Positions 1 through 64,000 of a stretch of DNA of 64,000 nt are shown here, piece by piece; within the stretch, counting starts at the first letter, position 1; each line of letters starts with the position of its first letter. This DNA comes from Eledone cirrhosa (Eukaryota), in NCBI GenBank assembly GCA_964016885.1, contig OZ024747.1:80724001-80788000 (forward strand), written 5' to 3'. The notes beneath the pieces are model-generated. The model ran no database searches and was not told the origin of the DNA. It saw only the letters and a program-made list of their open reading frames with translations. The position numbers and the translations under genes were made by a program.

Positions 1-1374
1 TGCATTATTGTAGTATTCAGCATGTTCGCTAAAAATATCAGAGTTAGACGATAGGCGAGAGATTCTAAGAGAAATACTCCGGGGAACTGATTTGATCATG
101 GAGAGTGGGTGGTTAGAGTTAAAGTTAATATACGTAAGGTTCTCATTTACCCTGTGGAAGGGTCGTATCTGTCCGGTATTTAAATTAAGAGTTACGTCCA
201 GAAAGTTTACTACCTTAAGATTGTATTCGTATGTTATTTTTAGGCCCAGTTCACTAAAAGATTTTCTAATATTTTTCCGTAGCCTTTCAAGATTTTGGTT
301 ATTCAAGTTATTAACTAATAAGAGCCCGTCATCTCTATATATCCCCCCCTGTAGATTACTAAATCTACTATGTAATATGTGGGCTATGTAAATTCCCACG
401 AGATCCGTGACCTCCGCCGAGTCGTTGGAACCCATGGTAATATCGAAATTTGTGGGTCTGTCCTTACGTTCCCAGTAGCAGTTATCGAACTTAATAATGG
501 TTTTTCTAGCCTCGAGAATAATATTAATTTCTTCCTCCGTTAGGTCGGAATTGGCCTTAGCAAACGATAGGGCCTTACGTAAAGTGCTTGGTGAGATGGA
601 AGAGTAGTATTCGTCTATGTCAAATTGTATAAACTTAGATTTATTCTTATTCTTAACATTATTAAACCAGCGAATTGCTTCGCTAGTGTTGCCCCATAAT
701 TTAATTTCAATTTTCTTTTTCACTTGAGTTATTACTCTGTCAAGTATATGTTTACTAATTTTCCCTATGTCTGATTTAGAAGGGCATATAAGTCTAATCT
801 TAGGGTTAGAGTCAAAATTTACCTTATGGTCCTTCAGGTTGAAGGTGGGGGTAGCGGGTATAATCGGCTCGGTTCTATCGTCTATCTTGAGATTCTTTAC
901 CACTTTGTATGCCTCGTTGTTAATATTTGCTAGCGTAGTTTCATTTGTTTTTCTATATTTTTTGTGTAGTTCGTTGCGTATGAAGTTATTATACGTATCG
1001 ATATCCATGGTATACACGTTAGAAGTCTTGTCAGCTTTCACAACAATTCCATTGGTATTTTGCAATCTTCGGAGTAGTGCTTTCATGTTGTTCTGCAGCT
1101 CATTATTTCTATGTCTGTTGAACTTAATGTTCATGGTAGTTTTCAATAAGTCCTGTTCGAAAGCTTCGAGGTGAGGGTTTGTAGGTGGGTTTTTACATGA
1201 TTTAAAACCATATGATTCAGACGAGTGATTGGCGCGTCCTTTATCGAAGTGGAAAGCTTTCCATCGTACACGCCGAATGAAGTCGTTACTGCGTTGAATC
1301 ATACTGAGAATATATTCCCTTTTGTTAGGTATAGGTATGTTTTTAAGTGACATACCTATATGATGCCTTTCCAT
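1..1374 (-). CDS. PLE reverse transcriptase ORF, N-terminal part, open to the window edge
   Basis: Hand translation: MERHHIGMSLKNIPIP...FIRRVRWKAFHF...KADKTSNVY...LKDHK...RLICPSKSDIGKISKHILD...FDIDEYYSSI...MGSNDSAEV...GIYRDDGL...FLDVTL. No stop was found. It is absent from the ORF track because it has no stop inside the window. Confidence 0.92.
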   Translation of the reverse strand, partial: MERHHIGMSLKNIPIPNKREYILSMIQRSNDFIRRVRWKAFHFDKGRANHSSESYGFKSCKNPPTNPHLEAFEQDLLKTTMNIKFNRHRNNELQNNMKALLRRLQNTNGIVVKADKTSNVYTMDIDTYNNFIRNELHKKYRKTNETTLANINNEAYKVVKNLKIDDRTEPIIPATPTFNLKDHKVNFDSNPKIRLICPSKSDIGKISKHILDRVITQVKKKIEIKLWGNTSEAIRWFNNVKNKNKSKFIQFDIDEYYSSISPSTLRKALSFAKANSDLTEEEINIILEARKTIIKFDNCYWERKDRPTNFDITMGSNDSAEVTDLVGIYIAHILHSRFSNLQGGIYRDDGLLLVNNLNNQNLERLRKNIRKSFSELGLKITYEYNLKVVNFLDVTLNLNTGQIRPFHRVNENLTYINFNSNHPLSMIKSVPRSISLRISRLSSNSDIFSEHAEYYNNA

Positions 1375-1619
1375 ATTAATGCCGTGTGTCGATGTGGTTG
1401 CTCAACTATGTAGGAGACGATTATTAGGTATAGGATTATCCAAGATGCAGTGATGGTTAATTACTACACTGGATATGGTTGACGTACGGTAAGAGGTTAC
1501 TCTACGAGTTATGGAAGAATTGTTCAAGAAACTTAGTTCTTGATCCTTCAGTATTCCGGAGTGTATATAAAGAATGAATAATAACAGGTAGACATCATAA
1601 AAAGGTAGTTTATTCCGTG

Positions 1620-1731
1620 TGCTTACAAGTGTTTCCACGGTGGTACTGCAGCCTAGTTCCGCTACGTGCAAATTCACAAGTATTTGCAGAACTCGAATAT
1701 CCAATGCTGTGACCACTGTTTCCTCAGAGCA
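1620..1731 (-). ncRNA. Type I hammerhead ribozyme, second pLTR copy
   Basis: Reverse complement of 3966-4077. Confidence 0.85.
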
Positions 1732-1794
1732 GAATGGTAAATATACAATGTAAAAACCCTTAGTAAACATATACTTGACAGAGTAATAACTCAA

Positions 1795-3472
1795 GTGAAA
1801 AAGAAAATTGAAATTAAATTATGGGGCAACACTAGCGAAGCAATTCGCTGGTTTAATAATGTTAAGAATAAGAATAAATCTAAGTTTATACAATTTGACA
1901 TAGACGAATACTACTCTTCCATCTCACCAAGCACTTTACGTAAGGCCCTATCGTTTGCTAAGGCCAATTCCGACCTAACGGAGGAAGAAATTAATATTAT
2001 TCTCGAGGCTAGAAAAACCATTATTAAGTTCGATAACTGCTACTGGGAACGTAAGGACAGACCCACAAATTTCGATATTACCATGGGTTCCAACGACTCG
2101 GCGGAGGTCACGGATCTCGTGGGAATTTACATAGCCCACATATTACATAGTAGATTTAGTAATCTACAGGGGGGGGATATATAGAGATGACGGGCTCTTA
2201 TTAGTTAATAACTTGAATAACCAAAATCTTGAAAGGCTACGGAAAAATATTAGAAAATCTTTTAGTGAACTGGGCCTAAAAATAACATACGAATACAATC
2301 TTAAGGTAGTAAACTTTCTGGACGTAACTCTTAATTTAAATACCGGACAGATACGACCCTTCCACAAGGTAAATGAGAACCTTACGTATATTAACTTTAA
2401 CTCTAACCACCCACTCTCCATGATCAAATCAGTTCCCCGGAGTATTTCTCTTAGAATCTCTCGCCTATCGTCTAACTCTGATATTTTTAGCGAACATGCT
2501 GAATACTACAATAATGCATTAAGGAATGCTGACCACCGGGATACAATAGAATACATCGATAGTAATTTCCACAACACACATAGCTCTACACGTAATCAAG
2601 GTATACGTAACCGGGGGACTAAAACACAAGCACACACACACTATACTACCAGACATACTAATAATAGAAGTTCACCACCAAATAAATCACGTTGTAGAAA
2701 GTATATCTGGTATAATCCTATTTTTAATGCCTCGAATAGTACAAAACTATCTCTTTCATTCTTTAAATTAATCAATAAACACTTCCCTAGTTCCCATAAG
2801 TACAGCAAAATTCTGAACTCCAAAACTATTAGACTATCATACTCCACGGCACCAAACCTTGAAGCATACATAAAAAAACTTAACTTAAGGCAATTAAACA
2901 ACTCTACAAAACAAAACATTTTAGTAACAGGTGGGCAGAACGCAATATCTGCCTCCCAACCACTAAATGGGAGACGGATATTGCACAACCCACCTGTACC
3001 GCTATCACAACCTATCCATGGTATACCCGCTACCCACAACAAAGCATGTAACTGCCATCTACCTGAAAGATGTCCATTGCAGAATGAATGCCTAAAGTCC
3101 AACATTGTTTACCAATGCACGGTTGAATCGGACGACCAGAAATGGTATTATATCGGATCTACCACCACATCGTTTAAATCTCGCTGGTACCGTCATCGAT
3201 TCTCAATCAAACATCAGAATCACCGTTTTGTGACCACGCTCGCCAACAAGACCTGGCAACTCCGTGAACACAACCAACAGTTCACCTTAAAATGGGATAT
3301 ACTTTCCAGCGCAAATGCATATCGGAGTGGTTTGAAGTACTGCAGGTTATGTAACCTTGAGCTATTTTACATACTAAAATCCAAAAACAAACTACTTAAC
3401 GATAGAATTGAACGATCATTATACTGCAACCACAAACTAAAAGCTAAATTCTCTCACTATAAAATAACTTAA
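1795..3472 (+). pseudogene. 5'-truncated PLE RT + GIY-YIG endonuclease, split by a +1 frameshift just before YRDD
   Basis: ORFs 1795-2184 and 2213-3472. G8 at 2169-2176 contrasts with the in-frame G7 in the minus copy (343-349). The C-terminus has CNCHLPERCPLQNECL, IVY...YYIGST...FKSRW..H and CRLCNLE motifs. Confidence 0.92.
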
Positions 3473-3965
3473 CATTCGAACCCGTAACTACAACACCACT
3501 TTCTAGCTAACAACCTTCTCTTCTCCCCCACACTACAAGACAATACACTGCTTATCACTATACATGGTAACTCAGTACAATTCCTAGATTACTACTACAA
3601 AACCAAAAGTTCACTCACCACATATACTTTATCTGTCCCCTCTCTACCTATATATCTCTCTCTACATCCATTACACTCTCTCTCTCTCACCTTTGACCTA
3701 CCTCCCTCTCAACATCTATGAACTTGACCTCTGGGGCAATAAATAATTCCGACCTCAACTATCTACGCATCTCTCCAAAAGTAACTAATAAAACCCCTAC
3801 CATAACATTTTGATTAAGATATCTACAAGCCACTCTCTCCTACTTCTCCAACCCCTGCATATCTTTCCTTCTCTCTCCATCTTCCCTACTTTTCTCTCTT
3901 CCTGTTCCACTCTATCTTCCCCAACAACCCCACTTAAGGGTTTTTACATTGTATATTTACCATTC

Positions 3966-4077
3966 TGCTCTGAGGAAACAGTGGTCACAGCATTGGATAT
4001 TCGAGTTCTGCAAATACTTGTGAATTTGCACGTAGCGGAACTAGGCTGCAGTACCACCGTGGAAACACTTGTAAGCA
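3966..4077 (+). ncRNA. Type I hammerhead ribozyme in the PLE pLTR, with an 85-nt helix II domain
   Basis: TGCT-CTGAGGA-(A ACAGTGGT...ACCACCGT G)-GAAAC-ACTT-GTA-AGCA; predicted cleavage after 4073. Confidence 0.85.
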
Positions 4078-4124
4078 CACGGAATAAACTACCTTTTTAT
4101 GATGTCTACCTGTTATTATTCATT

Positions 4125-4162
<38 letters not shown>

Positions 4163-4866: not shown

Positions 4867-5016
4867 CACGTACACATACATATATGCACGCATCAGTTTA
4901 GCGGACGCTTATTATAACGCCGCTTTGTTCGTTTGTAAACAAACTGAACAGCCTGAATTTATGCCATACGGTGTTAAGGCAACCACGTCACCTTTTTGTT
5001 CAACACTGACACAGGA

Positions 5017-5059
5017 ACGATGTACTAGTTTCAAGCTTGTTAGCTATCATCAGCACCGT
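5017..5059 (-). ncRNA. Type I hammerhead ribozyme
   Basis: ACGGTG-CTGATGA-TAGCT-AACA-AGCTT-GAAA-CTAG-TA-CATCGT; palindromic helix III (ACTAGT). Confidence 0.9.
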
Positions 5060-11287: not shown

Positions 11288-11385
11288 AGGGAGTGTAACT
11301 TGGAGTTACTGTAGGTTCACCCGGGTGAGCACTCGATGTTTAAGTTTACACTTCTGTGTAGAGGTGTGTGTATATATATATATAT

Positions 11386-14300
11386 GAATATAGACATAGA
11401 ATATTCGAAAATATTCTGTATGTTTATAATAAACATTTTGAAGACCTAATCGCTATAGAATAGAATACGTCACGTATTACAATTAGATTCTCGACAAAAG
11501 CAAGGGAAGTAATCTACGCGTTTCATTCTTGTTAGAAATCATCAGGACTACATATCCAGTGCTTTTATCGAGAATGACACAGCTAGAGACTTATAGAATA
11601 CTTAGCTGTGTACAGGAACTGGTTTGAAAGAGCGGTTGCCGGTCCGGCAGAAATTAGAAATTGGAATAAATGCTCTGAAATAGCGATATATATGTGAATA
11701 TAGACATAGAATATTCGAAAATATTCTGTATGTTTATAATAAACATTTTGAAGACCTAATCGCTATAGAATAGAATACGTCACGTATTACAATTAGATTC
11801 TCGACAAAAGCAAGGGAAGTAATCTACGCGTTTCATTCTTGTTAGAAATCATCAGGACTACATATCCAGTGCTTTTATCGAGAATGACACAGCTAGAGAC
11901 TTATAGAATACTTAGCTGTGTACAGGAACTGGTTTGAAAGAGCGGTTGCCGGTCCGGCAGAAATTAGAAATTGGAATAAATGCTCTGAAATAGCGATATA
12001 TATGTGAATATAGACATAGAATATTCGAAAATATTCTGTATGTTTATAATAAACATTTTGAAGACCTAATCGCTATAGAATAGAATACGTCACGTATTAC
12101 AATTAGATTCTCGACAAAAGCAAGGGAAGTAATCTACGCGTTTCATTCTTGTTAGAAATCATCAGGACTACATATCCAGTGCTTTTATCGAGAATGACAC
12201 AGCTAGAGACTTATAGAATACTTAGCTGTGTACAGGAACTGGTTTGAAAGAGCGGTTGCCGGTCCGGCAGAAATTAGAAATTGGAATAAATGCTCTGAAA
12301 TAGCGATATATATGTGAATATAGACATAGAATATTCGAAAATATTCTGTATGTTTATAATAAACATTTTGAAGACCTAATCGCTATAGAATAGAATACGT
12401 CACGTATTACAATTAGATTCTCGACAAAAGCAAGGGAAGTAATCTACGCGTTTCATTCTTGTTAGAAATCATCAGGACTACATATCCAGTGCTTTTATCG
12501 AGAATGACACAGCTAGAGACTTATAGAATACTTAGCTGTGTACAGGAACTGGTTTGAAAGAGCGGTTGCCGGTCCGGCAGAAATTAGAAATTGGAATAAA
12601 TGCTCTGAAATAGCGATATATATGTGAATATAGACATAGAATATTCGAAAATATTCTGTATGTTTATAATAAACATTTTGAAGACCTAATCGCTATAGAA
12701 TAGAATACGTCACGTATTACAATTAGATTCTCGACAAAAGCAAGGGAAGTAATCTACGCGTTTCATTCTTGTTAGAAATCATCAGGACTACATATCCAGT
12801 GCTTTTATCGAGAATGACACAGCTAGAGACTTATAGAATACTTAGCTGTGTACAGGAACTGGTTTGAAAGAGCGGTTGCCGGTCCGGCAGAAATTAGAAA
12901 TTGGAATAAATGCTCTGAAATAGCGATATATATGTGAATATAGACATAGAATATTCGAAAATATTCTGTATGTTTATAATAAACATTTTGAAGACCTAAT
13001 CGCTATAGAATAGAATACGTCACGTATTACAATTAGATTCTCGACAAAAGCAAGGGAAGTAATCTACGCGTTTCATTCTTGTTAGAAATCATCAGGACTA
13101 CATATCCAGTGCTTTTATCGAGAATGACACAGCTAGAGACTTATAGAATACTTAGCTGTGTACAGGAACTGGTTTGAAAGAGCGGTTGCCGGTCCGGCAG
13201 AAATTAGAAATTGGAATAAATGCTCTGAAATAGCGATATATATGTGAATATAGACATAGAATATTCGAAAATATTCTGTATGTTTATAATAAACATTTTG
13301 AAGACCTAATCGCTATAGAATAGAATACGTCACGTATTACAATTAGATTCTCGACAAAAGCAAGGGAAGTAATCTACGCGTTTCATTCTTGTTAGAAATC
13401 ATCAGGACTACATATCCAGTGCTTTTATCGAGAATGACACAGCTAGAGACTTATAGAATACTTAGCTGTGTACAGGAACTGGTTTGAAAGAGCGGTTGCC
13501 GGTCCGGCAGAAATTAGAAATTGGAATAAATGCTCTGAAATAGCGATATATATGTGAATATAGACATAGAATATTCGAAAATATTCTGTATGTTTATAAT
13601 AAACATTTTGAAGACCTAATCGCTATAGAATAGAATACGTCACGTATTACAATTAGATTCTCGACAAAAGCAAGGGAAGTAATCTACGCGTTTCATTCTT
13701 GTTAGAAATCATCAGGACTACATATCCAGTGCTTTTATCGAGAATGACACAGCTAGAGACTTATAGAATACTTAGCTGTGTACAGGAACTGGTTTGAAAG
13801 AGCGGTTGCCGGTCCGGCAGAAATTAGAAATTGGAATAAATGCTCTGAAATAGCGATATATATGTGAATATAGACATAGAATATTCGAAAATATTCTGTA
13901 TGTTTATAATAAACATTTTGAAGACCTAATCGCTATAGAATAGAATACGTCGCGTATTACAATTAGATTCTCGACAAAAGCAAGGGAAGTAATCTACGCG
14001 TTTCATTCTTGTTAGAAATCATCAGGACTACATATCCAGTGCTTTTATCGAGAATGACACAGCTAGAGACTTATAGAATACTTAGCTGTGTACAGGAACT
14101 GGTTTGAAAGAGCGGTTGCCGGTCCGGCAGAAATTAGAAATTGGAATAAATGCTCTGAAATAGCGATATATATGTGAATATAGACATAGAATATTCGAAA
14201 ATATTCTGTATGTTTATAATAAACATTTTGAAGACCTAATCGCTATAGAATAGAATACGTCACGTATTACAATTAGATTCTCGACAAAAGCAAGGGAAGT

Positions 14301-14480
14301 AATCTACGCGTTTCATTCTTGTTAGAAATCATCAGGACTACATATCCAGTGCTTTTATCGAGAATGACACAGCTAGAGACTTATAGAATACTTAGCTGTG
14401 TACAGGAACTGGTTTGAAAGAGCGGTTGCCGGTCCGGCAGAAATTAGAAATTGGAATAAATGCTCTGAAATAGCGATATA
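11386..14480 (-). mobile_element. Tandem array of ten 310 bp monomers, each with a type I hammerhead (retrozyme-like)
   Basis: Units start at 11386+310n (n=0-9). Only one substitution was seen (A>G at 13952). Both ends are flanked by (TA)n. Confidence 0.95.
11509..11551 (-). ncRNA. Type I hammerhead of the 310 bp monomer (repeated every 310 bp up to 14299-14341)
   Basis: GTAGTC-CTGATGA-TTTCT-AACA-AGAAT-GAAA-CGCG-TA-GATTAC. Helix I is extended by ATTCTCGATAAAAGCA/TGCTTTTGTCGAGAAT. Predicted cut between 11515 and 11514. Confidence 0.93.
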
Positions 14481-15138
14481 TATATATATATATATATATA
14501 TAGATATATATAGATAGATAGATAGATATATAACAAAGAAGGTGTGGTAAGATACCAGATGGACCATAACCCACCAGAGTACACGATACTTAGGATAGTA
14601 GAGTGGGTAATAGGAAAAGAGTCACGACCCCCACGGCTGAGCCCTGGCCGTTTCGACAGCTAGATCCGAAATATGAATATATATATATATAAATAAAACT
14701 TACATTCAAACATATTCTCACTATATAAGCCCACTCGAATGAATATATAAAACGTATAATTCATTTTCACTACAAACTTATATACATACACAATGACACG
14801 AAAATATTCTTTCTTGGCTTCAACAATACACATAGTCGTATATAGGTTTATAAACTGACACTTATATAAACACCTGGTCATGTGAAGATGTCAATAAGCA
14901 CACACGCCTATGAACAAAACCAAAACAAATACACAGAACATGCAATAAGCACATATACATCATCTGAAAAACCTGCATATATATCTTAGTACCAACGTAG
15001 AAACACGTAATGCATATTCAAATATTTCATCGCAAATACATACAAACATGCACAAATATCGGATTACGTTCAAACGCTCATAACCTCACGCACATTTTCC
15101 AAAATTAGTAAAATACACGCGCAGCTATAATATACGAT

Positions 15139-27486: not shown

Positions 27487-27557
<71 letters not shown>

Positions 27558-27852
27558 ATATAAACAAATAACGAAACGAAATTAAATTTCGTTTCGTTTG
27601 TAACTCACTTTTGTATGACTGACGCTTAAACAATTAAGTTAAAAATGTACATCCACATGTGTATACTGAAATACTAGTATGCATATGAATACACACACGT
27701 ATAAATATGTAGATGTACCGAGTTTTTCACTGGTCACTTTACTGTGAGTGTCCAGCTATTCTGTATGTAAACACACAGACAAACCGGTTTTTAGAGTCAT
27801 ACTAGTTTTTGAGGAAACACCTTTCCTCTATTCTCCAGAAAGCCAGACAAGG

Positions 27853-27897
27853 AATATTGAACTAGTTTCGTTGTTGTTACAACTCATCAGCAATATT
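27853..27897 (-). ncRNA. Type I hammerhead ribozyme
   Basis: AATATTG-CTGATGA-GTTGT-AACA-ACAAC-GAAA-CTAG-TT-CAATATT. Confidence 0.92.
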
Positions 27898-27947
27898 TAC
27901 CTATCTTCCGGCCTTTCTAGAGAATCGTAAAAGCACATATCGTTATA

Positions 27948-27991
27948 TGCTTTTTCTATGAAAATTAGTAGTGGGCAGACTAATTTGCATA
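27948..27991 (-). promoter_or_regulatory. Octamer plus PSE-like element upstream of the hammerhead
   Basis: TATGCAAATTAG TCTGCCCACTA CTAATTTTCATAGAAAAAGCA. Confidence 0.55.
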
Positions 27992-28273
27992 GAGCGTGAG
28001 TACGTACCGGTTCAGCGGAGACGATAAAAACAAATAACGAAACGAAATTAAATTTCGTTGTCTGGCTTTCTGGAGAATAGAGGAAAGGTGTTTCCTCAAA
28101 AACCAGTATGACTCTAAAAACCGGTTTGTCTGTGTGTTTACATACAGAATAGCTGGACACTCACAGTAAAGTGACCAGTGAAAAACTCGGTACATCTACA
28201 TATGTATACGTGTGTGTATTCATATGCATACTAGTATTTCAGTATACATATGTGGATGTACATTTTTAACTTA

Positions 28274-28358
<85 letters not shown>

Positions 28359-29144
28359 GCATATATATATATATGTATATATATATATATTTATATAGAT
28401 AGATAGATAGATGCTTAACTATATGTGTATGGCACGCATATGTAAGGTTGTGCGTGCGTGTGTATGTAATGTGTGTGCCGGTGTCAACGTCAGTATGTAT
28501 GACTGTACAAATTGGAAGTAACTTCTTGAAGCATGTCGTGTTGAAAATATAACTAATAATTGTTAAAACTTTTCCGTTAACCTTTGCTCTATTTTATGTC
28601 TTTGGTTTATGTAAAGCCTCAGCTTTTCATGTTTTACACGCTACATTTTATTTTTTTTATTGAAGAAACGATTTGTCGTTCCATATAATATAGCTTCGAG
28701 AAACGTCTCGAACATATCTTTAATTTTATGTATATTTTGAGATTTGTTTCTAAGATTCAGCTATTAATAGCAGCGGATAATCTCACCTATAGAGAGTCAA
28801 CGGGCCGAACACTACAGCTGAGTCCTTGCAACGGTATTAAACTAGATAATGACCTCTGATACATGATAGTCGAGTAGAGTAGAACTTTTACATCAGAACA
28901 TTTAGTCAATGTACATTTAAATGAGGAAAGCAAACGCAAACATACTAATTTAAACAACTGAAGAATAAACACCACCCCTGTCCCCTTTGGTGCCTATAAT
29001 GGATAGACATATTGTCTTTAATGCGTTGAAATGTCAGAGAACCCCAGCAGACAACTGAAGAAGGGACATATCCCTTGTTTGTCGTTTCTTTTTATTTTTA
29101 AGTACCCTTTATCAAGTAACCAGACAGTCCCTTGTTCCTTCTAA

Positions 29145-29179
<35 letters not shown>

Positions 29180-29217
29180 ATTAAATAAATGGAAAACTAT
29201 ATTTATAAAACCATATC

Positions 29218-29283
29218 TATTTCATTATATATATTTCGGGGATATCATATTAACAATATGCTATGCCTTCATCAGACAAAATA
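29218..29283 (-). ncRNA. Type I hammerhead, left arm
   Basis: Reverse complement of 32460-32525. Confidence 0.85.
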
Positions 29284-29643
29284 CAATATAAACAGTTTTA
29301 TAGATAAATATATTCGACATACCGTAATAAACATCAACTTCATTTGAAGAGGTTTACGCTAGCAGTGAAAATACAGAGAGAAAGAAAGAGAGAAAGAAAA
29401 GAGGGAAAAAAGAAAGAAAGAAAGACAAAACGAAGAGAAGGAAGAAAAAGAAGAAAAAGAAAAAGAAGAAATGCATGGAACAAAATAGAGAGATGGAAAA
29501 ATAGATAAAGCGAAGAGCTTCATGTAAAGAGACAGAAAGAGATATATATATATAGAGAGAGAGGAAATAGAGATAGATACATATATATATATAGAAAATT
29601 AGGTAGTGGGAGGTCATTTTGAGTAAGTGTATCAATGATACAT

Positions 29644-29682
<39 letters not shown>

Positions 29683-32040
29683 GCTCAAGTATTAATGTAA
29701 GGAAGATATATAGAGAGATATAGAGAGATATAGAGAGAGAAAAAAAAAAAAAAATTTAAAATAGCCAGACATATTCGAGGCGTAGAAAACCCTATGTTTT
29801 AATGTATTAGTATTTATAAAACTTACACTATATTGTAAATATCAGTATTCCTGAATGAAACAAGTATTCACAATGTGTGAAAATTCATTATCTTATGTTT
29901 AGTTTTAAAAAATTCATATGTTTATGTGACAGCTACAAACATCAATGTGAATCCAACTGATTCACTCCGCAAACTCTAAGTTACCGGAAAACATTCTCAA
30001 TGTGGTATAAAAATTTGAGCATATTATTATTCTTGCGATTACTCTACAAGATTATCTATCAAGCAGAAATAGAGAGCAGATTTCAATATACTAATCGAAA
30101 ATATATATTATATTATAAACAAAGATAACAATAATAATAATAAGTAAAAATATATAAAAATATAGAATAGAAAACTAAAAAAAAAAATATTACGAAAGAA
30201 TATTACATAATAAAAATATTGCATATTAAAAATACTACGTATTAAAAAATATTACGTATTAAAAATTTACATATAAAAATATTAAAAATAAAATAAAAAA
30301 TAAAAATATTATAGAATACTACAATACTAAAAGAATAAAAATAAAAATAAAAATAAAAATAAAAATGAAAATAAAATAAAAATAAACCACAAAGAACAAC
30401 CCTTCAAAGTTAATTGACAATATATTGCCAAGTTCATTGCAAGACAAAGCCAAAAATTATCTATCAAATCACATCTAGCAAAGAATATCGCAAAAAAGAT
30501 TATGATGTCCAATAATGTCTACATATGTTCCTATATTTAATATAGAAGTTTATCTAGTGTAAGGTTAATTCAAAAAATTTGGAGCATCGGCTTTTAGGGT
30601 AGCTTAATTTTTCATGAGGAATGTTTAGATAAAAATAAAAATAAATTAAATAAATTAAACAATAAAAAGAGTAAAAAGAGGGAATCAAAGATTTAGGAAT
30701 CTTCAACGGCACTATCAGGGGTACTCTGGCAACTTAAGCTAGATAACGTTAGATATTCGACGGCTTGGAATATAGTCTCAAGAGGGATTCCTTTTAATTC
30801 ATCCTCTGAGACATGTGACCTCTGCGCAGAGGAGATATTCTTTATACTAAAATCTAAAAATTCCCTTAACCTACGGACAAATTTATTCAGTTGTTGCAAA
30901 CATAGATTAAACTCAACGTTTAAATATAAATTTAAATTTAAAATGTAGTATATTTAGTTTGATTTATATTTATATGAGAACTAGCCGATAAATCTTTTGA
31001 TTCCTAAATCTTTGATTCCCTCTTTTTACTCTTTTTATTGTTTAATTTATTTTATTTATTTTTATTTTTATTTTTTATCTAAACATTCCTCATGAAAAAT
31101 TAAGCTACCCTAAAAGCCGATGCTCCAAATTTTTTGAATTAACCTTACACTAGATAAACTTCTATATTAAATATAGGAACATATGTAGACATTATTGGAC
31201 ATCATAATCTTTTTTGCGATATTCTTTGCTAGATGTGATTTGATAGATAATTTTTGGCTTTGTCTTGTAATGAACTTGGCAATATATTGTCAATTAATTT
31301 TGAAGGGTTGTTCTTTGTGGTTTATTTTTATTTTATTTTCATTTTTATTTTTATTTTTATTTTTATTTTTATTTTTATTCTTTTAGTATTGTAGTATTCT
31401 ATAATATTTTTATTTTTTATTTTATTTTTAATATTTTTATATGTAAATTTTTAATACGTAATATTTTTTAATACGTAGTATTTTTAATATGCAATATTTT
31501 TATTATGTAATATTCTTTCGTAATATTTTTTTTTTTTTAGTTTTCTATTCTATATTTTTATATATTTTTACTTATTATTATTATTATTGTTATCTTTGTT
31601 TATAATATAATATATATTTTCGATTAGTATATTGAAATCTGCTCTCTATTTCTGCTTGATAGATAATCTTGTAGAGTAATCGCAAGAATAATAATATGCT
31701 CAAATTTTTATACCACATTGAGAATGTTTTCCGGTAACCTAGAGTTTGCGGAGTGAATCAGTTGGATTCACATTGATGTTTGTAGCTGTCACATAAACAT
31801 ATGAATTTTTTAAAACTAAACATAAGATAATGAATTTTTACACATTGTGAATACTTGTTTCATTCAGGAATACTGATATTTACAATATAGTGTAAGTTTT
31901 ATAAATACTAATACATTAAAACATAGGGTTTTCTACGCCTCGAATATGTCTGGCTATTTTAAATTTTTTTTTTTTTTTTTTTTCTCTCTCTATATCTCTC
32001 TATATCTCTCTATATATCTCCCTTACATTAATACTTGAGC

Positions 32041-32099
<59 letters not shown>

Positions 32100-32459
32100 A
32101 TGTATCATTGATACACTTACTCAAAATGACCTCCCACTACCTAATTTTCTATATATATATATGTATCTATCTCTATTTCCTCTCTCTCTATATAAATATA
32201 TCTCTTTCTGTCTCTTTACATGAAGCTCTTCGCTTTATCTATTTTTCCATCTCTCTATTTTGTTCCATGCATTTCTTCTTTTTCTTTTTCTTCTTTTTCT
32301 TCCTTCTCTTCGTTTTGTCTTTCTTTCTTTCTTTTTTCCCTCTTTTCTTTCTCTCTTTCTTTCTCTCTGTATTTTCACTGCTAGCGTAAACCTCTTCAAA
32401 TGAAGTTGATGTTTATTACGGTATGTCGAATATATTTATCTATAAAACTGTTTATATTG

Positions 32460-32525
32460 TATTTTGTCTGATGAAGGCATAGCATATTGTTAATATGATA
32501 TCCCCGAAATATATATAATGAAATA
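32460..32525 (+). ncRNA. Type I hammerhead, right arm
   Basis: TATTTTGT-CTGATGA-AGGCATAGCATATTGTTAATATGATATCCCC-GAAA-TATATA-TA-ATGAAATA. Confidence 0.85.
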
Positions 32526-32660
32526 GATATGGTTTTATAAATATAGTTTTCCATTTATTTAATATTTAATATTGTAAATATACTCCAAATATTTGTCGAG
32601 TGCTTTTATATCAGTTATAAATATTTACTAGTTGTAACCCAACAATTTTAAATATAACTT

Positions 32661-32709
<49 letters not shown>

Positions 32710-32714
<5 letters not shown>

Positions 32715-33063
32715 CGTAAAACATACCAAAAATTGTGCATCTAATAACTGCATGTATAACCGCATGTACAGATACAAAGAATATGCACATGCACACATAT
32801 AACTCAAAACCTCCACATCCACACACACAATAACATCCATACGTCCACACATAGATATGCATGCAGACATGGATATATATTTACATAGTTGATGATGTGC
32901 CAATTTCAATGAGGGAGTTTTGTATCTATGTTAGAAACCGATTTTCTCTCTCTTGGTAAACATTTATAAAATTATAAAACTAGAAGAACATACATACATA
33001 CATTCATATACTCTTTTACCAGTCCCAGCCATCCGGCTGAGGCCATGCTGGGGCACTGCCCTT

Positions 33064-33150
<87 letters not shown>

Positions 33151-33847
33151 ACTAGAAATTGATTAACATATATAAACATGAATAATCACAGGAGATAATT
33201 TTTACATACCAAGTTAGGTAACACATAAATAGATACCTTTTAATATATGATTAACCTTCCCTGTATATATTCTATTAAAGAAATATATTTCACCAATTAA
33301 TCAGATGGTAAGTCACGGAAAGTGGATATTATTGGATTATCAACAAGGAAGAATAATAATGTCCAGCTATCCATGCTTACACCGCGAGTTTAAATCTTCA
33401 ACTGGCCTGTACCACGTGTTGCTCTTACACATGACAGCAGTCTCGTCGCAGTGGCGTGATAGGTATTCGACAACTAGAAACAGCAGTCAAATTCCTTTCA
33501 ACAGAATTAGCTCTACAATTAAGGAGCCGTATTTATATATCTATATCCAAAATTAAGATAAATTAAATGAATTTAATCCAAATCGAAATTGTGGGTGTCA
33601 TGCCATAACGGCGTGCGCCATATCGCCTGGAAATAAGCTCAAAGATAGGTCCGAGCATTTTATAATAGCTAGAAATTGATTAACATATATAAACATGAAT
33701 AATCACAGGAGATAATTTTTACAAGCGTGTAACCACGCATAGCAAGTTAGGTAACAAATAAATAGATACCTTTTAATATATGATTAACCTTATATATATA
33801 TGTATGTATATATATAAATCTACATTGTTGAGGCTTCCAAAACGACC

Positions 33848-33895
<48 letters not shown>

Positions 33896-34248
33896 CAAGG
33901 GCAGTGCCCCAGCATGGCCTCAGCCGGATGGCTGGAACAGGTAAAAGAGTATATGAATGTATGTATGTATGTTCTTCTGGTTTTATAATTTTATAAATGT
34001 TTACCAAGAGAGAGAGAATCGGTTTCTAACATAGATACAAAACTCCCTCATTGAAATTGGCACATCATCAACTATGTAAATATATATCCATGTCTGCATG
34101 CATATCTATGTGTGGAGGTATGGATGGTATTGTGTTTGTGGATGTGTATGTCTTGAGTTATATGTGTGCATGTGCATCTCCTTTGTATCTGTACATGTGT
34201 ACATGCAGTTATTAGATGCACATGTTTTGGTATGTTTTATGTATGTAT
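32710..34248. repeat. Inverted repeat, ~355 bp arms (32710-33066 / 33894-34248)
   Basis: Colinear reverse complements with scattered mismatches; a short related piece is near 57655-57693. Confidence 0.88.
33152..33791. mobile_element. 518 bp monomer x1.2 inserted in (TA)n within the inverted-repeat spacer
   Basis: Direct repeat starting at 33152 and 33670; internal long hairpins. Confidence 0.65.
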
Positions 34249-35713: not shown

Positions 35714-37771
35714 TCAGGCCAAGTCGAAGACTCCACCCTCAGAGTCTGGTGTGGTTGCCAGGTTGGATTCTCTGTTTAATTTTGACATGTGTAGGAGCGA
35801 GTTTGAGTCAGTTTGTGCTCGTTGTGTATATCCTGGGAGATGGGGTTCATCTCTAATGGTGCTTAAGTATCTATCCAGCTGCAATTTGAATGATTCCACA
35901 CTGCATCCTGATAGATTTCTGACATGTACCGGAATGGAGTTGAATAGTTGTGTCCCTCTAACCAACAGACTTGACTCTCGCAGGGTTTTTGCTGCCTGGC
36001 CAGCCCTTTTGTTGATTGGTGGTAGCTGGCAGCGTCTTCCGTGGCGCAGTGAGTGGTAGGTTTTGATACCGAAGTTTGGCACCTTTTGCTCTATCATTTT
36101 CCAAATGTATATAATTCGGTATCGCTCAAATCTTCTTTCTATTGAGTACATCTTCAAGGTTCTGAGTCTTTGCCAATAGTCCAGGTCCCTCGTTTCTGAG
36201 AAGTATGAAGTAAAATTTCTTTGGAGCGATTCCATCTTAGATAGTTGGCCCTTTGTTGTTGGTGACCACAACTGAGAACAGTAGTCAATCCTCGGAAGTA
36301 TCATACTGTTCCAGAGGGTTTTCATTGTTGAGGTATCTCTTGATTTGAAGGTGCGCAAGATCCACCCGCTGTACTTTCTTGCAGTAAGACAGACTGAGTC
36401 AAGGTGTTCTCTGAATTTTAGGCTGGTTCCCATGTGGATGCCTAAATCTTTCACACACTGTTTTTCCATTATTTGTTGTCCTGATGGGTTTCTGTAGTTT
36501 GTTGTATTTTTCAGATCTTGATCTGTTCCGTAGCGAATTAGTTCAAACTTCTTATCATTGAACAACATGTTGTTTGTTTCCTGCCATTTGTATATGGTGG
36601 TTAGGTCCTTTTGTAAGGCCTCTGTATCCACCTCGTCTTTGATTTGTCTCATGACCCTGGTGTCATCAGCAAAGGATGAGACGTTGCTGGTTGTATCTTC
36701 ATCTATGTCAGAGATGAGGATGAGAAACAGGATCGGGACGAGTACTGTACCCTGAGGAACACTGCTGGTCACAGGTGATGGTGTTGAATGGGTTCCATTC
36801 ACAGTGACTGTTTGAGTTCTATTTGTAAGGAACTCATGTATCCATGTACCAACTTTTCCTCCTACTCCTAGCTTTCGAAGTTTGTGTCCCAGGATGCCAT
36901 GATCTACCTTGTCAAATGCCTTGGCAAAGTCGAGGTAAATAACATCTGTGTTGTATCCATTCTCTAGATTTTCTAGGATTTGGTCATGGTGTGCCAGTAG
37001 TTGGGAAAGACATGATCTACCTAACCTGAATCCATGCTGATTGCAATTCATCAGATTGTTGGATTCCAGGAACTCAACTAGTTTTCCACGAACTATTCTT
37101 TCGAAGACCTTGATAATGTGTGATGTCAGTGAGATTGGTCGGTAGTTCTTTGGTTTTGATTTGCTGTCCCCTTTATGTATTGGAGTTATGTGTGCTTCTT
37201 TATATGTATTTGGTATTTTGCCATTCTCCATAGATTCCTTCCATATCATGTAAAGGGGTTTCAACAATTGTACCTTGCAGTTTTTAAGTATCATGGCATT
37301 GAAACCATCAGGCCCCGCAGCCGAGTGCATGGAGAGCTTGTCTATGGCTCTTTCTATGTCTTCTGGGTTGAAATCAATGTCGGATAGGGTAGGTTTAGTA
37401 TGGTCGATATCCTTGAAGAATTCTCCTGGGTCATGGATCTTCATGGTTTTAGATGGCTCACTGAAGACACTTTCATACTGTTGACCCAACATTTCTGCCA
37501 TTTCAATAGGGTTATTCACTACATCCCCATTTTGTCTCTGGAGAGGTCCTATTGTTGACTTGGTATTCGAGTATTTCTTTGCAAAACTGTAGAAACATTT
37601 TGGATTTTTCTTGATGTTTTCTATGGCTCTCTTTTCTGCATTGTTACGTTCTTCATCATAGTATTGTTTTAGATTGTCTTCTAATCTGTATATTTGGTCA
37701 AGGACTTTCTGTAGTTCATGTTTTGATGTCAGCTTAGATGTTTTGTTTCTTAGTCTTGACCTTTTGCGCAT
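35714..37771 (-). CDS. LINE ORF2 reverse transcriptase region
   Basis: AAGPDG, NYRPISLTS, QHGFRLGRSC, YLDFAKAFDKVDH, VPQGTVL, FADD, KDLGI motifs. Confidence 0.95.
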   Translation of the reverse strand: MRKRSRLRNKTSKLTSKHELQKVLDQIYRLEDNLKQYYDEERNNAEKRAIENIKKNPKCFYSFAKKYSNTKSTIGPLQRQNGDVVNNPIEMAEMLGQQYESVFSEPSKTMKIHDPGEFFKDIDHTKPTLSDIDFNPEDIERAIDKLSMHSAAGPDGFNAMILKNCKVQLLKPLYMIWKESMENGKIPNTYKEAHITPIHKGDSKSKPKNYRPISLTSHIIKVFERIVRGKLVEFLESNNLMNCNQHGFRLGRSCLSQLLAHHDQILENLENGYNTDVIYLDFAKAFDKVDHGILGHKLRKLGVGGKVGTWIHEFLTNRTQTVTVNGTHSTPSPVTSSVPQGTVLVPILFLILISDIDEDTTSNVSSFADDTRVMRQIKDEVDTEALQKDLTTIYKWQETNNMLFNDKKFELIRYGTDQDLKNTTNYRNPSGQQIMEKQCVKDLGIHMGTSLKFREHLDSVCLTARKYSGWILRTFKSRDTSTMKTLWNSMILPRIDYCSQLWSPTTKGQLSKMESLQRNFTSYFSETRDLDYWQRLRTLKMYSIERRFERYRIIYIWKMIEQKVPNFGIKTYHSLRHGRRCQLPPINKRAGQAAKTLRESSLLVRGTQLFNSIPVHVRNLSGCSVESFKLQLDRYLSTIRDEPHLPGYTQRAQTDSNSLLHMSKLNRESNLATTPDSEGGVFDLA

Positions 37772-38925
37772 CAGGATCTTTCGCTCCCGTGGTACAGGTT
37801 TTTTGTGGATTTGGTTTTCTTAAGAGGAATATTTTTTGCACATATTTCTTCGATCTTGTTTAAGAATTTCTTGTGTTTATCTGGCCCAGTAAGGTAGAGA
37901 TCCCAGTCAATGATTTGTAATTGGTTGTTAATAGTTTCCCAATTTGCCTGGTGATAATCATACCTGCATAGCTTTGGCATGTCCTTTTGTTTAAGAGTTG
38001 TGGCATTGGGCTCATTACCAATGTGTAAATGCATTTCAATAATATTGTGGTCTGAAAGGATTGTTGGGGTTGAGTGAAGGTCAAATAGCGTGTCCTCGTT
38101 GTTGGTGAAAACCAAGTCGATCGTATTATTATTTCTAGTTGCTTCTGTCATCATTTGTTTGAGGTATAATTTCTCTGTGACTTCCAACAGTTTGGCTGCC
38201 TGTATTTGTTCAGCTTTTGTCCCCAGTTTTAGTATGTGTCCATGTGGCCAGATGATGTTAGGGAAGTTGAAGTCACCAAGGAGGATAATGTTTGGCATTG
38301 GACTCGCCATGTTTCCCAGAATTTGTTGGAGCTTTGTCAGTGGTTCAGTGAAGGATAATGTTGGGCTGTTTGGCGGTCTGTACATTATTGTTACAACTGT
38401 ATTAAGTTGGATGATTTTTATGCACAGCAGGTTGCAGTAGGCATTTGATTCATTGACAAGTTCTATGCATGCATAGGTATCATGGATATACATGATAACG
38501 CCCCCATGGGATCTGACTTGTCTATCACATCTGAAGATGTTGAATCCATTGATTGAGATTTCGCTGTTGCGGATGTTTTCGTTGAGATGACTTTCAGTAA
38601 TTCCAATTATTTTGGAGTTGTTTTCTGTTGCTAATTCTTCCAAGAAAGGGACTTTACACTGTTTTGTTTTCGGATAAAGACCCTGGATATTTGCTGTTAT
38701 TATGCTTGTTGTACCGGATACATCTGCCCTATTGTTGGCAAGACTGTTGTAGTTGCTGGGACTGTGCTGACTGGATATTTGGTCTGCTGGGCTGTCTGTA
38801 TTTGTTGTATGTGCCCTGTAAGTCCAGGTGTCAGCCTTTGTATCAATGTTGCCTGGTTTTGCTGAGTCATCTGTATGGAGTACAGCTGTTGTTGTAGTTG
38901 GTAGATTATGCCTAAAAAACTGCTT
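37771..38925 (-). CDS. LINE ORF2 APE endonuclease region, separated from RT by a 1-nt frameshift near 37799-37804
   Basis: ANIQGL, ITESHL, GGV, YRPP, GDFNFP, IDLVF, SDHN motifs. The frame is open from 38925. One extra base would join it to KPVPRERKILMRKRSR. Confidence 0.9.
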   Translation of the reverse strand, partial: KQFFRHNLPTTTTAVLHTDDSAKPGNIDTKADTWTYRAHTTNTDSPADQISSQHSPSNYNSLANNRADVSGTTSIITANIQGLYPKTKQCKVPFLEELATENNSKIIGITESHLNENIRNSEISINGFNIFRCDRQVRSHGGVIMYIHDTYACIELVNESNAYCNLLCIKIIQLNTVVTIMYRPPNSPTLSFTEPLTKLQQILGNMASPMPNIILLGDFNFPNIIWPHGHILKLGTKAEQIQAAKLLEVTEKLYLKQMMTEATRNNNTIDLVFTNNEDTLFDLHSTPTILSDHNIIEMHLHIGNEPNATTLKQKDMPKLCRYDYHQANWETINNQLQIIDWDLYLTGPDKHKKFLNKIEEICAKNIPLKKTKSTKNLYHGSERS

Positions 38926-39158
38926 TCATTCATTACTGTATCGAATTTCTGCGAGTTTGGGTTTGTTACAGCTGATGTGTGCAATTGAGTAGCATGATTT
39001 TCATTCACTGTTGAGCCATGTCCTGGTTTCTGCATTTTTGGGAAATGGTTTTCATACCCTGCTGAGCTTGGTCCTGGTGGTGTGGGTTCAGTAGTTTTTA
39101 TGCGAATTGTACCCTTCCGGTGCATAAATTTGCAATTCTCGTCAAAACATTCTTTTAT
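38700..39158 (-). CDS. LINE ORF1 C-terminal part
   Basis: Begins with the zinc-finger remnant CFDENCKFMH, followed by a Q/T/P-rich tail; overlaps ORF2. Confidence 0.75.
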   Translation of the reverse strand: MKECFDENCKFMHRKGTIRIKTTEPTPPGPSSAGYENHFPKMQKPGHGSTVNENHATQLHTSAVTNPNSQKFDTVMNESSFLGIIYQLQQQLYSIQMTQQNQATLIQRLTPGLTGHIQQIQTAQQTKYPVSTVPATTTVLPTIGQMYPVQQA

Positions 39159-39315
39159 TCTCTCTATATATATATATAATCACCAAATTTCACTTCAGAA
39201 AGGTTTAACAATAGAAATTTAGCGTGTGTATTGAAACGTTTATTTTTTATACAACTTCAATATTTTTGATAATGGAAACTTGGAAGACCACAGCCTATAT
39301 GAATACACACACTGG

Positions 39316-55421: not shown

Positions 55422-56360
55422 CCTTCACATTAAAGTATCCTTCGTAGAACCCACTTTTTGCCTAGTTTGTTCGACACGGTATACATAACATCAACATCAC
55501 TAACTTCTACAATGCAATGACAGAGTGCAAGTCCTTTGGGTGTTTCTGCAACCCTCTTTAGATTAAAATGCTGCGAGTTTTGATATCAGAAAAGCAGTTG
55601 ATTTCGCTCCATGTGGATGGTCACTGTTTTCCATATATGACAAAATGGAGCTATCTCACTCAAAGATTAAAACCTTCTCTAAAACAACGAAGATCTAATC
55701 TATTAATTGTACATCCAACAACTACCATTACTAAGGGTTTGTCAATGATAGATTACCGGAATCGTTCCACCTTATGCGGTCAACCAATGTCCTCTGATCT
55801 AATTTGTAAAAGTAAAGTAATTTCCCTTGAGATTAACACATTCAAAATACAAGAATATTTTGTCAATGCCATTCTATAAAAAACATTAGAAACTTTCTGA
55901 TTATATTTTCTGTGTAAAGGTGTCAGTAGAGAGTGCTATTTTTCAGAATCCTTCGATTCAGGTGCACACATCTATCCTAAAATTTCATTGATGTTTCAAC
56001 ATATTCGTTGTAATATTAAAAGCAAAACATCTTCTCTAGTGATACAACTCCCTGTCTATAATTTGGAAATCTTCCAAATGTAGACATTTTTATTAAAGCA
56101 TAAATATATTCTCCATTAGTTAAGTAAATAATACCTCCCTCGGTTTCGAGGGTAAGTGTTCCAATAGTTCGATCATTATATAATGTGAACTTGACAATAT
56201 CATGTCATATTTCTATCCAAACTACAGGACATCTCAATTGTTTCAAAAACACTTCCAAACGAATCAATCTATAAACAGTCACTCGGTCAGCTTGAAACAT
56301 GAATCAATTTTCTTTCAAACTCCATACTACAGTTTTAGAAAAGGGAGGGACTTTTATGTA

Positions 56361-56975
56361 ATGTAGTTCAACATAGATTAAATATGAAAACAGACTGGAT
56401 GGTCGCACCTAGAAAAGGGCCTCTTATCTAATGTAATTCAACATAGATTAAATATGAAAATAGACTGGATGGTCGCACCTCGAAAAGGGCCTCTTATCTA
56501 ATGTAATTCAACATAGATTAAATATGAAAATAGACTGGATGGTCGCACCTCGAAAAGGGCCTCTTATCTAATGTAATTCAACATAGATTAAATATGAAAA
56601 TAGACTGGATGGTCGCACCTCGAAAAGGGCCTCTTATCTAATGTAATTCAACATAGATTAAATATGAAAATAGACTGGATGGTCGCACCTCGAACAGGGC
56701 CTCTTATCTAATGTAATTCAACATAGATTAAATATGAAAATAGACTGGATGGTCGCAACTCGAAAAGGGCCTCTTATCTAATGTAATTCAACATAGATTA
56801 AATATGAAAACAGACTGGATGGTCGCACCTAGAAAAGGGCCTCTTATCTAATGTAGTTCAACATAGATTAAATATGAAAATAGACTGGATGGTCGCACCT
56901 AGAAAAGGGCCTCTTATCTAATGTAGTTCAACATAGATTAAATATGAAAATAGACTGGATGGTCGAACCTAGAAA
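56361..56975. repeat. 70 bp minisatellite, ~8.8 copies
   Basis: Unit ATGTAATTCAACATAGATTAAATATGAAAATAGACTGGATGGTCGCACCTCGAAAAGGGCCTCTTATCTA, starting at 56361+70n. Confidence 0.95.
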
Positions 56976-62424: not shown

Positions 62425-64000
62425 CGTATGTGGCAATAGCGTCTATAGTCAATATATACTGACTGTCTGTAGTAATAGCCTCTATAGTCAATATATACTG
62501 ACTGTCTGTAGTAATAGCCTCTATAGTCAATATATACTGACTGTATGTAGTAATAGACTCTATAGTCAATATATACTGACTGTATGTAGTAATAGCCTCT
62601 ATAGTCAATATATACTGACGGTATGTAGTAATAGCCTCTATAGTCAATATATACTGACTGTATGTAGTAATAGCCTCTATAGTCAATATATAATGACTGT
62701 CTGTAGTAATAGCCTCTATAGTCAATATATACTGACTGTATGTAGTAATAGCCTCTATAGTCAACATATACTGACTGTATGTAGTAATAGCCTCTATAGT
62801 CAACATATACTGACTGTATGTAGTAATAGACTCTATAGTCAATATATACTGACTGTATGTAGTAATAGCCTCTATAGTCAACATATACTGACTGTATGTA
62901 GTAATAGCCTCTATAGTCAACATATACTGACTGTATGTAGTAATAGACTCTATAGTCAATATATACTGACGGTATGTAGTAATAGCCTCTATAGTCAATA
63001 TATACTGACTGTATGTAGTAATAGCCTCTTTAGTCAATATATACTGACTGTATGTAGTAATAGCCTCTATAGTCAATATATACTGACGGTATGTAGTAAT
63101 AGCCTCTATAGTCAATATATACTGACTGTATGTAGTAATAGACTCTATAGTCAATATATACTGACTGTATGTAGTAATAGCCTACATAGTCAATATATAC
63201 TGACTGTATGTAGTAATAGCTTCTATAGTCAATATATACTGACTGTATGTGGTAATAGCCTCTATAGTGAATATATACTGACGGTGTGTAGTAATAGCCT
63301 CTATAGTCAACATATACTGACTGTATGTAGTAATAGCTTCTATAGTCAATATATACTGACGGTATGTAGTAATAGCCTCTATAGTCAATATATACTGACT
63401 GTATGTAGTAATAGCCTCTATAGCCAACATATACTGACTGTATGTAGTAATAGCCTCTATAGTCAATATATACTGACTGTAAGTAATAATAGCTTCTATA
63501 GTCAATATATACTGACGGTATATAGTAATATCCTCTATAGTCAATATATACTGACGGTATATAGTAGTAGCCTCTATAGTCAACATATACTGACGGTATA
63601 TAGTAATAGCCTCAATAGTCAATATATACTGACGGTATATAGTAATAGCCTCTATAGTCAATATATACTGACTGTATGTAGTAATAGCCTCTATAGTCAA
63701 CATATACTGACTGTATGTAGTAATAGCCTCTATAGTCAATATATACTGACTGTATGTAGTAATAGCCTCTTTAGTCAATATATACTGACTGTATGTAGTA
63801 ATAGCCTCTATAGTCAATATATACTGACGGTATATAGTAATAGCCTCTATAGTCAATATATACTGACTGTATGTAGTAATAGCTTCTATAGTCAACATAT
63901 ACTGACTGTATGTAGTAATAGCCTCTATAGTCAACATATACTGACTGTATGTAGTAATAGCCTCTATAGTCAATATATACTGACTGTATGTAGTAATAGC
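62425..64000. repeat. 39 bp minisatellite, ~40 copies, runs off the window edge
   Basis: Unit TGTAGTAATAGCCTCTATAGTCAATATATACTGACTGTA. Confidence 0.97.

Follow-up and report, generated by a model that had tools for sequence, protein, structure and literature searches.

A hammerhead repeat array in Eledone cirrhosa, probably copied into a TA microsatellite from a circular RNA by a Penelope-like enzyme

A tandem array of a 310-bp hammerhead-bearing repeat lies at positions 11376-14483 of a 64,000-nucleotide stretch of Eledone cirrhosa DNA (assembly GCA_964016885.1, contig OZ024747.1, positions 80,724,001 to 80,788,000 of the forward strand), which is referred to here as the window. The array is likely one insertion of a young non-coding repeat, made by an enzyme of a Penelope-like element (PLE) that copies a single, probably circular 310-nt RNA into TA microsatellites. 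Tandem Repeats Finder returns it at these positions with a period of 310, 10.0 copies and 99% matches, and 10.03 units are counted by blastn. Positions within the monomer are given as phases, phase 1 being the first A of its own 8-nt AT tract. Ends that are 3' on the ribozyme strand are called outer and RNA-5' ends inner, and the two zones in which the outer ends of the repeat family lie are called sites A and B. The main features are as follows.

11371..11385, no strand: left (TA)n target run, 15 nt, with the site A junction at phase 10
11376..14483, minus as the ribozyme (RNA) strand: single-armed tandem array of 10.03 copies of the 310-bp retrozyme monomer (Tandem Repeats Finder, blastn)
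11495, minus: phase 120, the sole difference of the window haplotype from the family majority
11509..11551, minus: putative type I hammerhead motif of unit 1 (phases 134-176), presumed from its core consensus and matched to Rfam RF02275 below the gathering score
11653..11662, minus: site B zone (phases 278-287, given for unit 1), the second fixed outer end of the family
11797..11885, minus: predicted 16-bp stem prolonging stem I, given for unit 2 (z = -5.6)
13952, plus: the only internal singleton of the array (unit 9, phase 97)
14476..14502, no strand: right junction, where the monomer's 8-nt AT tract (14476-14483) merges with a 27-nt TA run that leads on to (GATA)n

All units of the array agree except at two bases: at the junction, unit 1 has A in place of G at its position 9, and a single base is changed in unit 9. 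The phase-120 change, an A-to-G on the ribozyme strand, is fixed in all 10 units and present in 21 of 88 loci of the family. The monomer has a G+C of 107/310 (34.5%), and the array, whose longest open reading frame spans 32 amino acids and which holds no reverse transcriptase (RT) plus GIY-YIG frame, is non-coding. Its left junction, which is the RNA-3' end and probably the start of the cDNA, lies just past the AT tract, with the tract's G (phase 9) swapped for a flank A at 11384. The right junction is the RNA-5' end and belongs to a rare end class in the family, and site B serves as no end in this copy. An earlier note on this DNA, made from the letters alone, had described a whole number of units and two junctions at the monomer's own AT tract, merging with the flanking (TA)n about 130 nt from the ribozyme cut site; for this locus the description holds. 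No empty site was seen in other individuals: in sequencing run X1, the flank contig ends at 11215, at a microsatellite, short of the array.

Each unit carries on the minus strand a motif that we take, from its core consensus, to be a type I hammerhead. It recurs every 310 bp up to 14299-14341 and is composed of a 6-bp stem I, a 4-bp stem II on a U-U base and a short palindromic stem III. The predicted cut falls between 11515 and 11514 (phases 139/140) and then every 310 bp, 130 nt from the left junction, and the units are predicted from sequence to self-cleave there. By e-value, Rfam places Hammerhead_HH9 first (18.3 bits, E 0.061), and the alignment has the core in register. The predicted 16-bp stem prolonging stem I would keep the cut ends together; it is preserved through compensatory changes in two related subfamilies, in one of which the core pair C3-G8 is replaced by U3-A8 and the stem kept.

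The repeat belongs to a large dispersed family. A search of the genome with the monomer gave at least 326 matches, from 38 of 155 candidates scored. The left-junction pattern has 1,257 matches genome-wide (some of them internal units) and the second-junction pattern 744 reverse-strand matches (forward ones were counted several times over), so the family is put at about 1,500 loci on many contigs. In run X1, depth is roughly 2e5 for the monomer and 8.7 for the unique flank, and short-read contigs have loose TA ends at phases 1 and 280. Eighty-one insertions were mapped, comprising the window copy, the 22 top BLAST matches, 21 loci from the left-junction pattern, 31 from the second pattern and six left-junction loci without a listed partner end; the counts leave out a truncated duplicate (L043a, the same as L092) and a short internal fragment of L071. 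Insertions not chosen by junction pattern, which hold 19 A-ends, form the unselected set.

The outer ends of the mapped insertions fall in two zones, A at phases 1-18 (72 ends) and B at phases 278-287 (74 ends), which lie about 35 nt apart and 130 and about 165 nt past the predicted cut; a single outer end, at phase 44 of locus L050, stands outside both. TA-rich flank adjoins 141 of 146 outer ends, and nearly all of those in the unselected set. Of the 19 unselected A-ends, 15 start at phases 10-13 and have flank TA in place of the tract's G; the other four keep the G, which is retained in 14 of all 72 A-ends. The B-ends begin at 278, 280, 282, 283, 285 or 287, nearly all at one or two A/T bases of the monomer; site B has 0-2 nt of homology to the target, yet is used once in each two-armed insertion. 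Homology alone does not set the starts, because most A starts lie past the AT tract. It appears instead that position fixes the start zone and short microhomology the exact base.

Most insertions consist of two inverted arms set back to back (68 of 81). Both outer ends are in view in 66 of these, all of which pair one A-end with one B-end, and extension of three cut-off loci gave three more such pairs, bringing the total to 69 of 69 with no A+A or B+B. Of 79 resolved insertions, 69 are thus two-armed and ten are complete single arms (six A, four B), a one-armed share that is rough since the majority of mapped loci were picked by junction pattern; the remaining two are left unresolved by assembly gaps. 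Mean arm length is 4.1 units for A and 5.4 for B, with maxima of 27 and about 45; in this sample, which is biased to long arrays, A and B arm lengths are uncorrelated (Spearman 0.16, P 0.21) and fit an exponential poorly (P 0.01). Foreign filler stands between the arms at L074:3099-3370 (272 bp) and L082:3030-3083. The L074 filler matches at 96-98% a repeat clustered at C25:19-24 Mb, and a PLE origin was rejected for it on that account; it suggests a template switch ahead of arm joining.

Inner ends behave differently: the 146 mapped are spread uniformly over the monomer (Kolmogorov-Smirnov P 0.12), with two at the cut site (phases 134-145; 5.65 expected) and seven at phases 1-10 (4.7 expected). 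A family-specific pattern for the window's right junction has nine matches in the genome, comprising six whole-number A arms (the window array among them, with unit counts of 10, 7, 6, 6, 5 and 1), two B arms and a lone 34-bp tail. A control zone, with inner ends at phases about 83-92 followed by TA, gave 14 distinct loci, although anchor and TA lengths differ somewhat in this pattern and the zone has short A/T homology of its own. Among the ten mapped single arms, the window copy alone ends in the tract and the other nine end at scattered phases from 39 to 300. A previous right-junction count of 537 matches was discarded because a sample of 20, made of every fifth row listed, came entirely from an older sister family with 75-89% identity and a longer AT tract in its monomer. 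The left junction of the window array is therefore a true start site that follows the family rule. The right junction is likely due to chance, because tract ends are not enriched over the control zone, and we favour, with fair confidence, an ordinary truncation that happened to land on the AT tract. The whole-number array with both ends in the tract, which the earlier note had put at the centre of its explanation, is hence a 0.4% special case (6 of about 1,500 loci) that carries little weight alone.

The sequences of the arms indicate what was copied. The 81 insertions contain 36 haplotypes. For 32 variants there is at least one locus in which all units of the two arms carry the variant, and 17 of these variants are private to one sampled locus; 55 loci carry a fixed variant. 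As haplotypes are fixed in all units of both arms, each insertion derives from one repeatedly copied monomer, much as the earlier note had supposed of this array. Singletons number 107 in 228 kb, and for 47 of them the other arm spans the same register without the change. No scar or stop is present at the cut site within copied units. One-base insertions fixed at phases 136-138 in two loci were considered as ligation scars and rejected, since they lie near the cut site and not at it. A circle is the simplest template for such copying.

Fixed changes also differ in kind from singletons, as compared over 88 insertions (the 81 and seven right-junction loci). A-to-G on the ribozyme strand accounts for 13 of 33 distinct fixed substitutions and for eight of 95 singletons (Fisher P 1.3e-4), and the 13 exceed the four of the opposite kind (P 0.008). 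A-to-I editing leaves A-to-G changes as its expected trace, and the excess among fixed changes points to editing of the RNA. Within the hammerhead, none of ten fixed changes and seven of 17 singletons strike core positions (P 0.026); the fixed ones lie at free position 7 or in loop II, or keep the stem pairs. A-to-G singletons are in excess on the cDNA strand (20 against eight, P 0.06), a hint, and only that, of rU:dG errors.

The layout of the ends resembles that of PLEs. The PLE of the anole nicks both strands of AT-rich DNA in vitro and is predicted to be a dimer; it starts at two internal sites without target homology, and the stretch between these forms a tail of 30-40 nt (PMC11167929, in the portion available). 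According to the available text of PMC8557442 and PMC3846280, inverted insertions usually have the tail at just one of their ends, and Neptune and Naiad are known to target (TA)n. Endonuclease-positive (EN+) PLEs, including Poseidon PAc of Anolis, Neptune, Naiad and Hydra, share with the present family two internal starts downstream of a hammerhead, a one-ended 30-40-nt tail (about 35 nt between A and B here), an inverted 5'-truncated partner, random 5' truncation and an AT-rich or (TA)n target, as far as these sources describe them. The family differs in that it has no open reading frame, its two arms are multimers that reach 27 and 45 units, and its first start lies 130 nt past the cut (the second about 165), compared with about 85-92 nt in PAc. 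Non-autonomous elements of Chlamys such as MRC1 are likewise PLE derivatives with multicopy head-to-tail insertions, but are described as mostly without hammerheads and as matching their autonomous partners at the 3' end (PMC8557442, in part).

With its 310-bp tandem units, inside the 150-450-bp range of such elements and each with a type I hammerhead motif, non-coding sequence, G+C below 50% and dispersed multicopy distribution, the array fits the sequence-level definition of a metazoan non-LTR retrozyme, and A+B ends, an inverted 5'-truncated partner, variable 5' truncation and a (TA)n target add the end signatures of PLE mobilization. As described in the accessible parts of the retrozyme papers (PMC7229834; bioRxiv 10.64898/2026.07.22.740005), such elements are likewise dispersed tandem low-GC units with one type I hammerhead each and no coding frame; expression and circles were demonstrated there, whereas the present family is known from genomic sequence alone. 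PLE-driven copying of circles has been proposed for metazoan retrozymes (Cervera and de la Pena 2020, PMC7229834), and Li, Clavereau and Pollet 2026 (bioRxiv 10.64898/2026.07.22.740005) demonstrate kinship with PLE ends and lean towards local growth by unequal crossover; rolling-circle copying by PLEs is proposed and not demonstrated in the accessible text of these papers. The words 'inverted' and 'microsatellite' do not occur in the available text of PMC7229834, and array ends, inverted arms and a microsatellite target are absent from that text and from the accessible part of the bioRxiv paper. A literature search, with subscription journals outside its coverage, found no mapping of retrozyme array ends and no two-armed arrays. 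No LTR-like terminal structure is present at the mapped ends, with a primer-binding site and polypurine tract not searched for.

A mechanism can be proposed on this basis. An array would be transcribed on the minus strand, and its RNA A-to-I edited, cut by the hammerhead to monomers and closed into circles. A PLE protein, probably as a dimer, would bind one RNA and nick both strands of a (TA)n target, after which one 3' end would prime at site A and the other at site B, with the zone set by the protein and the exact base chosen through 0-3 nt of A/T microhomology. Both cDNAs would then go round the template 0.2 to 45 turns, and joining of their far ends would give a head-to-head array. The window copy would be a minority product, with an A arm only, whose far end was joined to the target at the AT tract by chance. 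In L1 twin priming, both nicked target strands prime on one RNA to give an inversion, and the second priming site is variable; in the present family the second site is fixed and both products are multimers. In its fullest form, in which the insertions are records of a PLE dimer with each subunit starting from its own fixed site and rolling round one edited, ribozyme-made circle, the proposal stands at about an even chance.

The earlier note had explained the array by priming of a nicked (TA)n target on the AT tract of a circular template, with whole-number, tract-ended arrays as the typical product, and much of its wider outlook fits the family: the repeat is not confined to one locus, it sits in (TA)n, its ends do not gather at the cleavage site and one monomer was copied round repeatedly. 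Priming at the tract fares less well. Half of the outer ends (72 of 146) lie at or beside the tract, 14 of 72 A-ends keep its G and six whole-number arrays do exist. Set against this, 15 of the 19 unselected A-ends start past the tract, site B with its 0-2 nt of homology takes part in every two-armed insertion, inner ends at phases 1-10 number seven against 4.7 expected, whole-number arrays make up six of about 1,500 loci, and nine tract ends compare with 14 in the control zone. As a family rule, this model is already refuted, and it is very improbable as an account of the array; tract homology would be at most one contributor to priming. The second fixed start and the two-armed layout had been missed, and random end points, which the note had named as contrary to its proposal, are what inner ends display. 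Its alternative, unequal crossing-over at the AT tract, cannot produce the family pattern. In the more general form of local growth from a solo unit, as proposed for vertebrate retrozymes (in the available text of bioRxiv 10.64898/2026.07.22.740005), crossing-over would account for the few unfixed variants that recur in several units of one arm (L074, L156); it leaves unexplained the identical haplotypes across inverted arms, the strict A+B pairing, the fractional arm lengths and the strand-biased A-to-G founder changes, and singletons persist where homogenization would remove them, so that it has very little likelihood.

Two further alternatives keep the PLE machinery. The same enzyme and start sites might act on a linear multimer, either read through from a donor array or transcribed by rolling circle from an RNA or DNA monomer circle; autonomous PLEs make partial tandems from read-through RNA, and the anole enzyme copied unprocessed RNA in vitro. 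Read-through from a donor, though, predicts variants shared in register between arms, of which one unfixed case was seen (L150) against about 28 expected over an overlap of 61 kb, on the assumption that donor arrays varied internally as much as present ones do. Nor can read-through bring a private variant to fixation across as many as 19 units in both arms, and with a multimer that was itself copied from a circle, a monomer circle is still needed in the cycle. A linear template is accordingly improbable. For the window locus only, a two-armed insertion may later have lost its B arm by deletion from an internal AT tract to the right-hand (TA)n, which would leave whole units only. Instability is a known property of long inverted repeats, the AT tract reads the same on both strands and agrees with the flank, and most resolved insertions have two arms (69 of 79). 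Nine other single arms, however, end at phases 39 to 300, and ends at the tract show no excess over those in the control zone, so that a special deletion route is unnecessary; loss of an arm is possible, if rather doubtful.

Several points weigh against copying of a ribozyme-made circle by a PLE enzyme, which nonetheless remains the preferred account. Rfam gives no match in the array at the gathering score, the best match lying far under it, and eight of nine predicted Xenopus retrozyme dimers failed to cleave in vitro (bioRxiv 10.64898/2026.07.22.740005, in the text available). In vitro, the anole enzyme worked on unprocessed RNA and could do without its ribozyme (PMC11167929, in part). From sequence, a circular RNA looks the same as a uniform linear multimer that was itself copied from a circle; L136 combines two haplotypes in a mosaic, L150 shares its unfixed variant in register, and the expectation set against it depends on the assumed donor heterogeneity. 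Selection by junction pattern blurs the one-armed share. Target-site duplications of metazoan retrozymes, where present, exceed 4 bp, a length that is not measurable inside TA runs: in nine of 85 loci an interrupted TA motif is repeated on the two sides, compared with 0-1 among shuffled pairs, but such motifs recur within the microsatellites themselves. Finally, none of 30 GIY-YIG and 21 longer PLE loci shares end sequence with the family, in a search that covered 51 of 10,597 candidates and is far from complete.

If the proposal is true, the PLE tail would be the footprint of an obligate two-subunit, two-primer reaction, the insertions would provide direct genomic evidence for animal retrozyme circles as a transposition template, and about 1,500 natural read-outs would be at hand of the processivity and error rate of a telomerase-like reverse transcriptase. 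The questions addressed are how animal retrozymes move and what purpose the hammerhead and tail serve in PLEs; to these the family contributes base-precise starts, the strict pairing of one A-end with one B-end, a bottleneck of one monomer, traces of editing and a ribozyme core under selection.

The partner search encountered several Neptune-type families with paired ends of their own, two ends being seen in three; its weak profile matches were set aside as separate short hammerhead elements. The window itself contains a young two-armed autonomous PLE in (TA)n, at 1-4133 and continuing into its left neighbour (C7:80722244-80724000), with an intact 775-aa RT plus GIY-YIG frame in the left arm, a unit of 3,178 bp and at least 150 copies at 97-100% protein identity. 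Its two fixed ends lie 142 nt apart (the usual tail is 30-40 nt), and its family has the same layout, with one of each end in 11 of 12 two-armed loci. From its motifs this PLE is presumably Hydra-like; a Pfam search of its frames returned no family, and no canonical hammerhead core was recognized in its end region. It was rejected as the partner of the array, having no similarity to the monomer and a tail of 142 nt. A hammerhead-bearing end of another PLE family stands beside a TA run at about 4900-5053 (minus), and the same motif occurs at L235.

Related elements occur elsewhere in the genome. The older sister family has a unit of about 320 bp, 75-89% identity and more than 500 loci (L051-L070 on contig C1, for example L067:3900-4830); it shares the B zone and the two-armed layout and has the U3-A8 core variant and a longer stem III. 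Conservation between the two families covers phases 238-310 and 1-81. A third subfamily is represented at L175:2424-2890. Very short palindromic hammerhead elements in (TA)n, with ends about 67 nt apart and a core and stem II that nearly match those of the present family, are found at L230, L233 and L237 (for example L237:2660-2830). Twenty sequencing runs under 17 organism codes contain 70-100% of the words, with no RNA run listed, and in runs X3, X4 and X5, which have other organism codes, the monomer forms a closed 340-nt contig at 99-100% identity and depth 10-48, without unique flank. Horizontal transfer was not argued from these contigs, which high-copy carry-over, diet or environmental DNA explain equally well.

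Other features of the window include two tandem arrays, at 56346-56976 (70 bp, nine copies) and 62405-64000 (39 bp, at least 41 copies), in which a pattern search found no hammerhead core, and a LINE at 35714-39179 (minus) with endonuclease (PF14529, PF03372) and RVT_1 frames. Inverted pairs are present at 29158-32582 (arms of 1,587 bp, 96.6%) and 32708-34248 (arms of 405 bp, 94%, with TA runs on both sides). At 27495-28397, TA runs enclose two inverted 388-bp arms of 87% identity; a hammerhead-like core is present at 27890 (minus), and this pair is probably another, older two-armed element.

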